A DNA stretch of 64,000 nucleotides, taken from contig JBIOUG010000142.1 in assembly GCA_044866775.1 (NCBI GenBank), positions 1,847 through 65,846 of the forward strand. Direction: 5' to 3'. This DNA is from Thermoanaerobaculia bacterium (GTDB lineage: Bacteria; Acidobacteriota; Thermoanaerobaculia; Multivoradales; UBA5704). Position 1 is the stretch's first letter. Each line of letters begins with the position of its first letter. Below, in pieces: positions 13,094 through 21,472 of this stretch. The translations under genes were made by a program, and so were the position numbers. The notes beneath the pieces are model-generated. The model was not told the DNA's origin, made no database searches, and was given only the letters and a program-made list of their open reading frames with translations.

Positions 13094-13125
13094 GAAAACG
13101 CCCGGGACGTGGCCCGGGCGCTACG
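13094..13125 (+). repeat. REP-like element copy B (gaaaacgcccgggacgtggcccgggcgctacg)
   Basis: 8-bp stem CGCCCGGG/CCCGGGCG with loop ACGTGG. Its CTA (13121..13123) is the TAG stop of lanB. Confidence 0.85.
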
Positions 13126-16100
13126 GGGCGGTCACCGCCAGGCGCTCGGCGGGAGCTGCGGTCGTCTTCGCGGCGGCCCCGGCCTTGCGGGCGCGCGCCT
13201 GCTGCGAGCGGTAGAGCTGGACCAGGAAGTCGTAGAGCACCATCTCGTGCTCGGGTCCGGCCGAGCGGCTGAGCCGGTTGACGAACATGTGGACGTAGCT
13301 CGGCACGATCTCGGCGAGCTGCGGCCGCAGCCGGCCGCGGCGATCGCGGGCGTGGAGCTCGGCGACGACCGGCGCCAGCGCCGCCGAGCGCCGGGCCAGG
13401 GCGGCGAGCCCGGGCTGGGCCTCCTCCGGCATCCCCTCGCGGCCGGCGAGGAGGCGCTCGAGCGCCGCGCGCAGCGGCCGCAGCCGGTCGGCCACCGGCT
13501 CGCGCAACGCCTCGTGGCGCCAGCGCCCGGCGACGCCGGCGCGGCCCCGCTCCGCCAGCCGCTGCTTGGCTTCGAGGTCGTAGCCGAGGTCGTCGAGCAG
13601 GCGATCCATGCCGGCGAGGATCAGGCGCCAGCGCAGGTCGGCACCGGCGTCGCTGGTGAGCGACTCGAGCATGGCGACCACCGCCTCGCTGTCATGGAAG
13701 AAGAGCTCCTCCGCCAGCTCGATGCCGCCGTCGCCGCCGTAGCGCTCGACCTCGCGCTCGTAGGTGTCGAGCTGGCATTTCCAGGCCGAGCCGGCGTCGA
13801 GCAGCCGGGCGAAGGCGTCCTCGAGCAGCGGCTGCACCTCCGCGCGCAGCCGCTCGGGGGCGCCGCGGAAGCGCACCCGCAGGTGCCAGTGCGGATCGCT
13901 GAAGCGGATGAAGAACCAGCCGTCGGCGGCGCCGGCCGCGAGCGCCCGGCGGGCGAGCGGCCCGATCTCGTCGCGCAGCACCTGGTCGGCGGTCGCGGTG
14001 CCGGCGTAGAGCTTGGCGTAGAGCCAGGCGGAGCCGGGCGGGAAGGTCCGCGCCGGCGCCGCGCCGGGCTCGGCGCGTGCCGCGGGCGGCGGGACCTCGA
14101 CCAGCGAAAGCTCGGCTCGCGGCGCGGCGACTTCCGCGGCCGGCCGCCGCACGAACGGCACGACGATCTCGTGAAAGAACCGCCCCTCGGGCCCTTCGGC
14201 GCACAGCTCGTCGGGCGTCGGATAGAGCTCGGTGAGCACGACCTCCTCGCGGCTCTTGACCAGGTCGACCACGGCGTCGAGAGAGAGCGGGTTCGCGAAG
14301 TCGAGCAGCAGCTCGTTGTCGCCGTCGACGAGGGCGACGAAGCGCGGCATCCGCCGCTCGCGCCGCCACTGCTGCGCCAGCCGGTAGCGCGCGGCGCCGG
14401 TCGCCTTGGCCAGCGGCTCGAGGTCGCTCTTGAGCAGCAGCCAACGCGCACGCGAGAGCACCAGCCGTCCCGTCACCACGCGCGGCAGGAACGGCGCCGC
14501 CGCGAGAGCGCCCCAGCTCCAGGTCGCGCCCCCCATGCGCCCTTGGCCCTGGAGCGAGGCGAGGAAGCGATAGAGGCCGAGGCTCTCGCGGGCGGTGTTG
14601 TGGGCGTTGGTCAAGCGCGGGACGACCTCGCGCCCGAGGCGCCGCGAGCGCAGGCGGATGCGCTCGCCGAGCACGGTGACCAGCAGGTCGTCGGCCGGGA
14701 TCTGGCCCTCCGGCGGCACTCCGGAGCGGCCGAGGAAGGGGATCTCGTAGCGGCGCAGCAGCGGCCGGGCGAGGATGTTGCCGATGCGGCCCTCGGGCAG
14801 GTGCACGATCTCGGCGAAGACGGCGTCCGGCGCCAGCGCCTCCTCCGCCGCCAGGTGCGCCTCGACCCCGGCGCGCAGCTCCTCGTCGATGTGGCAGAAG
14901 CGGCCGAGGATGCGCGCCCCCGAGGGTCCGGCGGCGTGCTCGACGATGAGCCGGAAGTCCCCCCGCTCGAGCGCCTCGGGCGAGCCGGCGACGAGCGTCG
15001 CCATGGCGTGGAAGGCGTCGGGTAAGGGTGGCCGCTCGGGGATCTCCAGCCGCTCGAGGTCGCCGTCGCCGAGCGCCATCTCGGTCTTACCGCTGCCGAG
15101 CGTCTCGGCGAGGAGCCGCAGCAGGATCGCCTCGCGGCGGGCCCAGGCGGTCGTCGGGCGCTCGACGCGGGGCCGGAAGACGAGGCCCGAGAGCAGCGGC
15201 GAGGCCTCCGCCGCCGCCTGGTTTGAGCGCTCGTAGCCGATCCCGCTCTCCTCATCCAGGGCGGCGAGCAGCGGCACCTCCCGCCCCTCGCCGTAGCGGT
15301 CGCGGAAGGTATTGCGGAAGTCCTCGAGCGGGCCGCCTCCCCAGGCCGCGGCGACGCGGTGCAGGATCTCGACGCCGCGCAGGATCTCGGCGGCGACGGC
15401 CTGGTCGACGGCGACCTCGCGCGCCGGCTTGACCAGGTCGACCTGGAAGAGGCGCGACATCTCGACCGGCACGCCCAGCGGCTCGAGCGCGCGGGCGATC
15501 TCGCCGTAGCGCGCGGCGGGCGAGCCGAGGCCGCCGGCGTCGATCTCCGCCAGCGCGCGCTCGGCGCCCGCCAGGCGCTCCGCGGCCGCGGCGGCCGGGG
15601 GCAGCTCGGCGAGCTGGCGCAGGAGCCCCGGGGTGCTCTCCTCGCCGGTCACCGGCAGGGCGAGCTCGGGGAGCAGGATCTGATTGTCCACGAGGTCGTG
15701 GAGGAAGGCCTCGGCGTCGTCGAGGGTGATCTCGCCTTCGGGATCGTCGGCGACCAGCGCCGCGGCGAGGTCGCGCAGCCGGGCGCCGCCGGCGGCGCGC
15801 TCGAGGGTGCTCGCCAGGGCGTCGAAGGCGTCGACGGCGACCAGGTGGTAGGTGCGCAGGCGTCCGGCCAGGCGCGCCTCGGCGTAGCGCAGCCGCCCGG
15901 CGGCCGCGTGGAGACTCGAGTTCGGACGGAAGAGGATCTCGGTGCGCACCGCGGCGTCGCGCGTCAGGTGGTCGCAGAGCGCGAAGAGGTAGTCCATGTC
16001 GAGGCGGCTGTGCCGGCGATAGGCCCGGCGCTCGGCGACCGCGAGCCGCCGGCCGTCGCCGACCGTGCCGGCCGTGCAGCCGGAGAAGAGACCGAAGGGA

Positions 16101-21100: not shown

Positions 21101-21472
21101 GAACAGCCCGTCGTCGTCGATCAGCTCCTGCAGCTCGGCGAGGTCACTGGCGCCGGCGAGCACGATGCTGAGGCAGGCGGTGCGCGGGGCGTCGCGCCGC
21201 AGCGTCGCGACCGCCGCCCGCACCTGCCGCGGCGAGGAGCCGGGGGCGAAACAGAGGACGGCGGCGGCATGCGCGGCGGCCTGCGCCGCGAGTCGACCGG
21301 CGCCATCCGCGGCGACCAGCGGGACGTCGCGGCCCGCGAGGAGCCGCTGCACGCCGGGCGGCGGCCCCTCCGGCCCGATCCAGAGGACCGGCACCGGCGC
21401 CGGCGGGCGGCACGCAGGGTCTTCGCTCTGCTCCTGGCTAAGGGATTCGCCCGAGCTCTGGCCGAAAGGCAT
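18164..21472 (-). CDS. lanT: peptidase C39 domain-containing bacteriocin/lantibiotic ABC exporter (LanT) with ~370-aa N-terminal sensor-like extension
   Basis: C39 motifs are AADCGAACLAMSL (Cys), NHFVVLERF (His) and ILDPGYG. Six-TM exporter region. Walker A GASGSGKST, signature LSGGQRQRIALARAL, Walker B LILDEATSALD. N-terminal residues ~165-315 are GAF-like (GLVSFVLRTGRTLRLPRIGDDPRFD...RFLAVPVRAGDGEVVAVLTAL). Confidence 0.85.
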   Translation of the reverse strand: MPFGQSSGESLSQEQSEDPACRPPAPVPVLWIGPEGPPPGVQRLLAGRDVPLVAADGAGRLAAQAAAHAAAVLCFAPGSSPRQVRAAVATLRRDAPRTACLSIVLAGASDLAELQELIDDDGLFYVAPVALSDADAAGLIASAAGALRQRTDPAAGQAAPPSLALDRLLPAGTLQRLAIAATAADLAGAAGAAAARAAGARRGHCVLFDRERQALWAPAADAETRHSPAVGLVSFVLRTGRTLRLPRIGDDPRFDRDLDDPDGEASDRFLAVPVRAGDGEVVAVLTALRPAAEPAFEPAAAAALETVAAHLAPYLTPWIAGGADAAPAAAADEPPAAAATRRNPFRSRALDELERPSGAGARPLLAALSTGRRRLRYVPQAAAADCGAACLAMSLGWHGKTVSLEQVRRVTGSARHGLDAQTLLRAANHFGLRGRGVQVGEPEDLALLDPGTILHWGFNHFVVLERFERRGAWILDPGYGRRFVLRAELDRALTGVALTFEPGPDFEPGGQRSSLLGRYLRRVLRHNAALARILVASVLLQLGALAVPLLTGFLVDRVIPRGDHRLFTVLALGAVALAGFALVVTLLRARILLALRTRIDAQLSFDFVEHLVRLPFAFFQQRSAGDLLTRLASNATIREILTSAVLSGALDGLMVASYLALLLLADLRLGALVAGLAVVRVAILIGAMRRRRRLTSEALEAQAASQGYQVQLLAGIEALKACGAERRAVDTWSHLFVRELNASLARGRLDALVNALVDGLALASPLAVLLYGGARVMAGDLTLGTMLSLAALASGFLAPLSMLVTNAAQFQLLGSYLERLDDVLSTPAEPDGLEWPRPAVFAGRITLEAVTFRYGPLVPPALEDVSFAVEPGQLVAVAGASGSGKSTLAGVVAGLLDAQAGHVLYDGSPLAELPRDWLRGHLAYVPQQSFLFGTSIRANIALQDPALPLERVVEAAKLAEIHDDIAALPMGYETVLADGGASLSGGQRQRIALARALVTRPAVLILDEATSALDAVTEQKVQRNLQRLAMTRIVAAHRLSTIRDADRILVLDRGRIVDAGTHDELAERPGLYQQLAAAQLANATLQPPPAETGGGSPREAAS

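Follow-up and report, generated by a model that had tools for sequence, protein, structure and literature searches.

The locus described here raises the question of whether four adjoining genes, which encode a lanthipeptide precursor, two class I modification enzymes and an exporter with its own peptidase domain, make up a complete biosynthetic unit, and how the leader of the precursor would be removed. The genes are found in a stretch of 64,000 nucleotides of an uncultured Thermoanaerobaculia bacterium (assembly GCA_044866775.1, contig JBIOUG010000142.1, positions 1,847 to 65,846 of the forward strand), which as a whole is called the window and in whose coordinates all positions are given. 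Here it is proposed that these four genes, arranged as lanT-lanA-lanC-lanB, very probably constitute a self-contained class I lanthipeptide cluster of an Acidobacteriota genome that is Thermoanaerobaculia-like, with processing at a Gly-Gly (GG) site by the C39 peptidase domain of the exporter. The cluster and its parts are the following.

13121 to 16441, minus strand: lanB, encoding a full-length dehydratase of 1106 residues with glutamylation and elimination domains, from Pfam and PDB matches.
16438 to 17697, minus strand: lanC, encoding a zinc-dependent cyclase of 419 residues, from Pfam LANC_like and a PDB match.
17724 to 17765 and 17775 to 17810, minus strand: two G+C-rich RNA hairpins in the lanA-lanC gap, from the RNA fold.
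17818 to 18018, minus strand: lanA, encoding the 66-residue precursor, from its NF038153 match, its homologues and AAAGGAG 7 nt upstream.
17821 to 17928, minus strand: the lanA core, residues 31-66, ATTTCCGTTSGCTYASECHCATDSCTGYTTDCSNCC.
17929 to 18018, minus strand: the lanA leader, residues 1-30, MKKQIGRRLSLSKETLRNLSERELAAAVGG.
18164 to 21472, minus strand: lanT, encoding 1102 residues with receiver-like, GAF, HlyD-type remnant, C39, six-helix ATP-binding cassette (ABC) membrane and ATPase parts.
18440 to 19876, minus strand: the ABC membrane (residues 533-800) and ATPase (862-1011) domains of LanT, from Pfam, PDB and motifs.
19961 to 20347, minus strand: the C39 double-glycine peptidase domain, LanT residues 376-504, from Pfam and the LahT150 alignment.
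20378 to 20446, minus strand: the N-terminal remnant of a HlyD-type membrane fusion protein at the fusion junction, LanT residues 343-365, NPFRSRALDELERP...
20513 to 20980, minus strand: the GAF domain, LanT residues 165-320, from an AlphaFold (AF2) model, Foldseek and homologues.
21023 to 21388, minus strand: the receiver-like (beta-alpha)5 domain, LanT residues 29-150, from an AF2 model and Foldseek.
21473 to 21683, minus strand: the intergenic region of 211 nt upstream of lanT, A+T-richer near the start codon.

The whole window has about 73% G+C, so that long open frames alone carry little weight; the lanB frame, according to the list of open reading frames (ORFs) of the window, is open as far as 17740. 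A codon-position G+C test was used to tell coding genes from chance ORFs, and the G+C content at third codon positions (GC3) is 0.94-0.95 across the full lengths of the four minus-strand genes. An earlier interpretation made from the letters alone (the sequence-only reading) had drawn the same four genes with the same boundaries; all of these ORFs are present, each with strong profile support. Its assignment to class I, with LanB and LanC and in this gene order, is upheld by Pfam profiles and motifs, Lant_dehydr_N, Lant_dehydr_C, LANC_like and Peptidase_C39 all having matched the expected ORFs. LanB matches Lant_dehydr_N (1.8e-171, profile positions 1-647 of 649) and Lant_dehydr_C (1.3e-61, positions 1-255 of 255), having as best PDB match MibB (5ehk, 8.1e-60), followed by 9g04 and NisB, and it contains the motifs RPTPFGLFSG (112-121) and WFFIRFSDPHWHLRVRF (842-858) that had been quoted for it. 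LanC matches LANC_like (1.2e-36), and its best PDB match is the class I cyclase MadC (8byk, 4.2e-17), with HG.PG, WCYG and CHG aligned. The motifs quoted for LanC are also found (GVAHGIPG at 203-210, WCYG at 269-272 and CHG at 319-321), and His206, Trp269-Cys270-Tyr271 and Cys319-His320 are kept, the Cys-Cys-His zinc site and the catalytic His being complete. The longest lanC ORF would begin at GTG 17706; the most likely start is ATG 17697, which is preceded by GAGG and gives 419 residues, the length of an independent gene call in contig L001. The stop of lanC and the start of lanB overlap as ATGA, as had been pointed out before, and the two genes are translationally coupled through it.

The exporter gene lanT is a single ORF with a GC3 signal that is maximal from the first codon, and GGAG is found 6 nt before its ATG at 21472. 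LanT matches Peptidase_C39 (3e-24), ABC_membrane (7e-31) and ABC_tran (1.3e-31) in Pfam, and PCAT1 (2.8e-90), ComA and HlyB among full-length PDB matches. The ATPase motifs are normal (Walker A GASGSGKST, signature LSGGQRQR and Walker B LILDEATS). The C39 domain has LahT150 (6mpz) as its best PDB match (E 4.8e-26), the DCGAACL of PCAT1 also being aligned, and its catalytic residues Gln380, Cys386, His460 and Asp476 are present at positions aligned to the solved structures. Unlike in the usual peptidase-containing ABC transporter (PCAT), this domain is not N-terminal in LanT, where about 375 residues precede it.

The precursor belongs to a described leader family. The LanA leader passes the NCBIfam model NF038153 (lant_leader_L1a, "class I lanthipeptide") with 2.2e-8 and 34.1 bits, against a cutoff of 22, and its residues L9-S-L11-S-K13-ETLRN-L19 ... 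G29-G30 fit the signature LxLxKx5L...GG exactly, which confirms the GG ending expected from the sequence-only reading. The core has 9 Cys among its 36 residues, 14 Ser/Thr, three Asp/Glu and zero Lys/Arg. A search of 5.8 billion proteins gave 44 LanA relatives, with the near-invariant leader MKKQI..KL.LSKETLRNLSER[ED]L...VGG and variable, Cys/Ser/Thr-rich cores; acidobacterial homologues already carry the NCBI name "class I lanthipeptide [Thermoanaerobaculia bacterium]". When these 44 are taken together with the copies from related loci (n = 51), L-x-[LV]-x-[KR]-x5-L fits 49 of the 51 leaders, a C-terminal Cys is present in 48 sequences (31 of them with a Cys-Cys end), and C-x-[TS]-[DE]-x-C is found in 26 of the cores, from which no functional claim is drawn. 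Neither the mersacidin-type TxTxEC nor the nisin-type lipid II motif is seen by eye in the window core. No characterised peptide matching this core was found, in a comparison that lay outside MIBiG, and a full-text literature search with the leader sequence (SKETLRNL and similar) gave irrelevant matches only. The window has no second copy of lanA.

A lanA gene from another sample (contig L002, 513-713) differs from that of the window in 20 of 201 nt, all of them third-position and synonymous, and encodes an identical peptide, next to a LanC with 82% protein identity to the window LanC. Such a combination means that leader and core are both under strong purifying selection, which is unusually strict on the exact core. 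Downstream of lanA, the RNA fold of 17698-17820 has -68.2 kcal/mol (z = -3.0; 2 of 200 shuffles were equally stable); its two hairpins lack a T-tract, and the terminator scan found nothing there. In nisA, a downstream inverted repeat is thought to set the stoichiometry of precursor to enzymes. By analogy, the ratio of lanA to lanBC may be set by the lanA-lanC hairpins, either through attenuation or through stabilisation of the mRNA.

Relatives of the cluster mark its boundaries. The block module-PCAT-lanA (1-6 copies)-lanC-lanB, where the module is the receiver-like plus GAF part, or a close permutation of this block, was found at no fewer than 11 loci of Acidobacteriota whose flanks are unrelated (L003, L005, L006/L007, L009, L010, L011, L016, L017, L021 and L022, as well as L023, which is truncated after lanA). 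These flanks include type VI secretion system genes, MalT-like regulators and pyridoxal biosynthesis genes, among others. A conserved block amid unrelated flanks means that the functional unit is the four genes. The ten closest LanB relatives among GTDB genomes, with 52-69% identity, are all Acidobacteriota metagenome-assembled genomes (MAGs; Holophagales, Thermoanaerobaculia and unclassified), the next ones being from Myxococcota (38%) and Bacteroidales (L019, 30%). For the methylmalonyl-CoA mutase of the window (47327-48964, plus strand), the named best matches, at about 80% identity, are nearly all Thermoanaerobaculia, with one Solirubrobacterales and one Acidobacteria label. The Acidobacteriota-like host guessed from the letters alone thus agrees with the Thermoanaerobaculia/Holophagales MAGs to which the LanB and mutase relatives belong. 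As observations on the family itself, L016 has up to six tandem lanA genes (7084-8582) and L021 has a second LanB gene after the precursors (17635-19806), which points to combinatorial expansion within the family.

In the LanB family, Glu-tRNA is used to glutamylate Ser/Thr, after which glutamate is eliminated; LanC enzymes carry out zinc-dependent addition of Cys thiols; and in PCATs the cut of the C39 domain after GG is coupled to ATP-driven export. Because the LanB, LanC and C39 domains are intact, we infer the corresponding steps for this cluster. The first product would be LanA, whose leader of 30 residues contains LxLxKx5L and has GG at its end. LanB would bind this leader and, by glutamyl-tRNA-dependent glutamylation followed by elimination, dehydrate Ser/Thr of the 36-residue core; LanC would then join the thiols of the nine Cys to the dehydro residues, with up to nine (methyl)lanthionine rings as a result. 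The C39 domain of the exporter would then cut after Gly30 and the ABC part would carry the core across the inner membrane, with the N-terminal receiver-like and GAF module possibly regulating or scaffolding processing and export from the cytoplasmic side. The ring pattern, the cleavage site, the export route and any bioactivity of the product are, like this chemistry, predictions from the parts.

The module is also found in L003, L005, L006, L009, L010, L011, L016, L017, L021, L022 and L023 (in the window it occupies 20348-21472, minus strand), and acidobacterial clusters carry it in three architectures. Most homologues have, after the module, PFRxRALRELExP...EPLRLxPxW, a transmembrane helix and an RND_mfp/HlyD adaptor body, and a module-adaptor gene of this HlyD-type fusion is directly upstream of the PCAT gene in L003, L009, L010, L016, L017 and L021. 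A stand-alone module gene (about 330 aa) is in front of the PCAT gene in L011 and L023. In the third architecture, which is that of the window, L005, L006/L007 and the proteins P0055 and P0056, the module is fused to the C39-ABC exporter, and the cytoplasmic motif of the adaptor joins the PCAT N-terminus directly, ...RR(L/I)RYVPQxAAADCGAACLAM at the same junction. An ancestral module-adaptor gene would here have shed its membrane and periplasmic part and then fused to the exporter.

Several points weigh against a complete and working unit. No immunity or regulator gene adjoins the cluster. The host is presumably diderm, yet the window encodes neither the body of a membrane-fusion protein nor an outer-membrane factor, and its genes therefore do not account for release past the outer membrane. 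The best NCBIfam model for LanT, TIGR03796 (NHLM_micro_ABC1), gives 654 bits, below its cutoff of 853.3, and LanT is not a member by the NCBI criterion. Also, the GAF assignment rests on homologues and predicted structure, Pfam having given zero matches to LanT residues 1-375 even at E <= 10. The alternative that survives best is that the cluster is cryptic or decaying, its membrane-fusion protein lost, its exporter unable to deliver the product past the outer membrane and its operon non-functional. The relatives with a module-adaptor gene retain a membrane-fusion protein and the window has none, and most class I clusters of Gram-negative bacteria are reported to stay silent under laboratory conditions (PMC9680876). 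This alternative is nevertheless considered unlikely, since all four genes are intact and keep their catalytic residues, the 20 changes in lanA relative to a diverged relative are all synonymous, and the fused architecture is kept in several lineages with 44-58% module identity, which argues for a maintained function. A functional four-gene cluster is the reading retained here.

A second group of alternatives concerns leader removal. The sequence-only reading had found no LanP, LanD, LanI, LanFEG or LanRK gene anywhere in the window. This stands for the surroundings of the cluster, beside which there is none, and does not stand for the window as a whole, which has an S8 subtilase and an ABC-2 set. 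The Pfam scan of the window covered its high-scoring ORFs, about 44, and no LanD-type flavoprotein, LanI or LanRK was found among them. The two candidates are the following.

5346 to 6704, plus strand: an S8 subtilase gene, weakly mycosin-like, 6.4 kb from lanB.
58014 to 59794, plus strand: an ABC-2 ATPase/permease gene pair, 37 kb from the cluster.

The ABC-2 pair was rejected as LanFEG for its distance, its lack of conservation with the cluster and the GldG-like ABC_transp_aux and DUF4340 genes next to it; with these two it makes up a four-gene run at 58014-62755 (plus strand) that looks like an ABC system of the gliding-motility type, not like LanFEG immunity genes. The subtilase was in turn rejected as LanP. 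That this subtilase, or an unclustered enzyme, removes the leader, with the C39 domain only docking the substrate in an HlyB-like manner, is a very improbable explanation. It has in its favour the presence of the subtilase in the window, the unclustered lanthipeptide proteases that have been documented (PMC8960859), and the good scores of HlyB-type transporters against LanT. However, the subtilase is encoded on the other strand, five unrelated genes (SLT, RRM, M24, SQS_PSY and DtxR/MntR) separate it from the cluster, its mycosin-like score is weak, and it is absent beside the cluster in every relative with the lanT-lanA-lanC-lanB arrangement. The C39 domain, on its side, keeps all four catalytic residues and its strong match to LahT150, which is active, and the leader ends in GG; nothing in its sequence points to a degenerate or HlyB-like domain. 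As the sole in-cluster protease, it is the predicted leader peptidase, as the sequence-only reading had also proposed.

That reading was right about the C39 and ABC part of LanT and overlooked the separate module in residues 1-375. AlphaFold models of the module were built from a homologue alignment, and that of residues 21-155 has a pLDDT of 89.7 and a pTM of 0.86. For the receiver-like domain, the top Foldseek matches are BrpR, the CpaE pseudo-receiver and the KdpE, HupR, DctD and Spo0F receivers, with TM values of 0.5-0.65. There is no phospho-acceptor Asp, strand 3 reading AAVLCF and then APG, and strand 1 (...VLWI-GPEG) is without the acidic pair; V72, L73, F75 and P77 are invariant among module homologues. 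By its modelled fold the domain is a pseudo-receiver like CpaE-N, from which the acidic residues of two-component receivers are absent. The GAF region matches 4mcw, 5w10 (cAMP-bound Lcd1), PDE10A GAF-B and DosS/DosT in Foldseek searches of the PDB (E 2.4e-7 to 1e-3), and precomputed Pfam GAF and GAF_2 assignments exist on homologues about 50% identical to the LanT N-terminus. LanT residues 26-367 have 45-58% identity to many proteins; in 1.84 billion cluster representatives the module matches 716 at E < 1e-3 and 246 at E < 1e-10, most of them of 500-750 aa. All three of the close module homologues whose context was examined are in lanthipeptide clusters, and the module is for this reason taken to belong to the acidobacterial lanthipeptide cluster family.

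It could be objected that this N-terminal extension is unreal, either an artefact of a high-GC ORF or the result of a mis-assembly or frameshift that joined a GAF gene to an exporter gene. Spurious long ORFs do occur in DNA of 73% G+C, as the overlong lanB frame illustrates, the module is a separate gene in L011 and L023, and the Pfam search of residues 1-375 was empty. On the other hand, the GC3 statistics and those of the second codon position (GC2) indicate coding up to the first lanT codon, a Shine-Dalgarno sequence precedes ATG 21472, the identity of residues 26-367 to many proteins goes with a confident fold model, and the same in-frame junction is present in the independent contigs L005 and L006/L007 and in the proteins P0055 and P0056. 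An artefact is thus hardly credible, and the extension is taken as part of the exporter.

As for the role of the module, it might, as a guess, regulate by ligand-dependent gating, or scaffold processing and export. In a more specific and tentative form, for which the odds are judged to be against, it is a cytoplasmic control element of the maturation and export of ribosomally made peptides with post-translational modifications (RiPPs) that has not been described, sensing either the state of modification of the precursor or a small ligand, and gating C39 cleavage and transport. If this were true, a metabolic or signalling cue would be required for release of the lanthipeptide, a control that takes the place of the absent LanRK-type regulation, and the exporter-fused form would show the module acting on the transporter and not on the adaptor. 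Gating of processing and export by the module would also be a post-translational control point undescribed for lanthipeptides or for PCATs generally. In the literature searched (one library only), no description was found of GAF combined with a PCAT, C39 or HlyD adaptor; the single mention of a "GAF domain" in Haft 2010 is an unrelated profiling match and was rejected as a precedent.

Finally, that the product is another LanB-dependent RiPP (thiopeptide-like, merely dehydrated, or a disulfide or metal-binding Cys-rich peptide) can be set aside as scarcely probable: the C-terminal domain of LanB is matched as well by TIGR03891 ("thiopeptide-type bacteriocin biosynthesis", NCBIfam) and the Cys content of the core is unusually high (9/36), but this NCBIfam model works at the domain level and class I LanB proteins share it, LanC has complete zinc-site and catalytic motifs and is coupled in translation to LanB, and no YcaO, cyclodehydratase, [4+2] pyridine synthase/cyclase or radical-SAM gene is found among the high-scoring window ORFs scanned.

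The immediate neighbours of the lanthipeptide cluster are the following.

12343 to 13011: a DtxR/MntR repressor gene, downstream of the cluster.
21684 to 22433: a metal-dependent hydrolase gene of the MBL fold (PRK00685), upstream of the cluster.
22504 to 22851: an ArsR regulator gene, upstream of the cluster.

The MBL-fold gene was rejected as a cluster member, being the PRK00685 equivalog and not found with the cluster in relatives, and so was the ArsR gene, which is absent with the cluster in relatives except for a weak match about 8 kb off in L006. The region 21473..21683 is likely the promoter and regulatory region of the operon. The promoter and terminator scan of 12000-23500 gave nothing, no sigma-70 consensus being found, and such a scan is uninformative in Acidobacteriota DNA of 73% G+C.

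Other features of the window were also recorded. The first 4 kb (1-4000) have a G+C of 0.59-0.64 versus about 0.72 and contain an IS110-family (DEDD_Tnp_IS110) transposase ORF at 3264-3962 (plus strand); they may be an inserted mobile element at the window edge. A gene for an extracytoplasmic function (ECF)-type sigma factor overlaps one for a VWA/YfbK_C protein at 25218-28027 (minus strand), and adjoining this pair is a gene for a 998-aa TPR and CHAT (caspase-like) protein at 28759-31755 (plus strand), all of which may form a signalling or defence-like module. Two ORFs on the minus strand have strong coding statistics and no Pfam match: one of 966 aa at 49400-52300, whose coding signal is very strong (GC3 0.98) and which gave no family at E <= 0.001, and one of 373 aa at 37840-38961, with GC3 0.98 and unusually low G+C at first and second positions (GC1/GC2 0.61/0.40). 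A B12-dependent class II ribonucleotide reductase is encoded at 43195-46002 (minus strand), in the same window as the methylmalonyl-CoA mutase gene; an Rfam scan of the 64 kb found no cobalamin riboswitch and no other RNA family, and a tRNA scan of the same stretch found none. A MerB-like alkylmercury lyase domain protein (35176-35625, minus strand) and a putative endonuclease of the Uma2 family (57149-57706, minus strand) are encoded by isolated genes.

With respect to known systems, the sequence-only reading had given weight to the novelty of LanB and LanC enzymes combined with GG/C39 processing. This weight is not sustained: class I enzymes with class II-style processing are a described subtype and no surprise, for which peptides have been produced and the model NF038153 exists. 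Class I LanA peptides with LxLxKx5L leaders, many ending in Gly-Gly and often with a C39 protease in the cluster, were reported by Walker et al. 2020 (PMC7268733). Among class I GG-leader peptides, Ped15.1/15.2, the thalassomonasins and the viridisins have been expressed heterologously and analysed (PMC9680876, PMC12328550), and LahT150 has been used for leader removal on the class I PedA15.2 (PMC12328550). The window cluster shares with the Walker 2020/Ped15 subtype (Pedobacter lusitanus) a separate LanB and LanC, the leader signature with GG, the in-cluster C39 ABC exporter and the lack of LanP. It differs in the host, which is Acidobacteriota here and Bacteroidota there, so that the taxonomic range differs and the mechanism does not. 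The window LanB is about 30% identical to that of the Bacteroidales relative L019, the cores are unrelated, that of the window being very rich in Cys, the exporter has the extra receiver-like and GAF module, and there is a single precursor in the window and several in Ped15.

The thalassomonasins A/B and viridisins of Gammaproteobacteria (PMC9680876) are similar in that class I LanB/LanC enzymes act on GG-leader precursors in a Gram-negative host, and in having no known immunity genes; their operons are drawn as lanC-lanB and then several lanA, and the figure legend names no exporter (PMC9680876, compared by description). The likeness to pinensin (Chitinophaga pinensis) drawn in the sequence-only reading is loose. 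Pinensin is also a class I-type lanthipeptide of a Gram-negative bacterium, but its dehydratase is split into PinB1 and PinB2 (PMC9680876), whereas the window has one full-length LanB of 1106 aa with both Pfam domains. Clusters of the nisin/subtilin type resemble the present one in their LanB and LanC chemistry and in the hairpin that follows the structural gene; in contrast to them, the window cluster is without an FNLD-type leader box, an in-cluster LanP, LanI/LanFEG and LanRK. Its exporter has a C39 domain, of which NisT has none, and its core is anionic (3 Asp/Glu and no Lys/Arg), unlike those of cationic lantibiotics.

On the exporter side, the PCATs LahT, PCAT1 and ComA have the same order of C39, transmembrane and nucleotide-binding domains and the same catalytic Cys/His/Asp, LahT150 being the best structure. 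In the nitrile hydratase leader peptide (NHLP) export set (TIGR03794/03796/03797; Haft 2010, PMC2887384), as in the relatives of the window cluster, the PCAT is paired with an HlyD-type adaptor, and the best family is TIGR03796. The window locus differs from both PCATs and NHLP systems by about 370 extra N-terminal residues in LanT and by the missing adaptor body. What is new here is a core for which no characterised match was found, the commonness of the subtype in Acidobacteriota and the attachment of a sensor-like module to the machinery for export. With this cluster the class I GG-leader lanthipeptides gain an uncharacterised core that is anionic and unusually rich in Cys. The subtype occurs widely among the Thermoanaerobaculia and Holophagales of the Acidobacteriota, and hardly any RiPPs of that phylum have been characterised. 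The compact set of three genes plus a LahT150-like protease domain is a practical target for heterologous production, for which class I enzymes frequently need their own tRNA-Glu/GluRS pair in order to work (PMC9576775). Set beside these systems, the receiver-like and GAF module on the export machinery is a more interesting lead than the core or the subtype.

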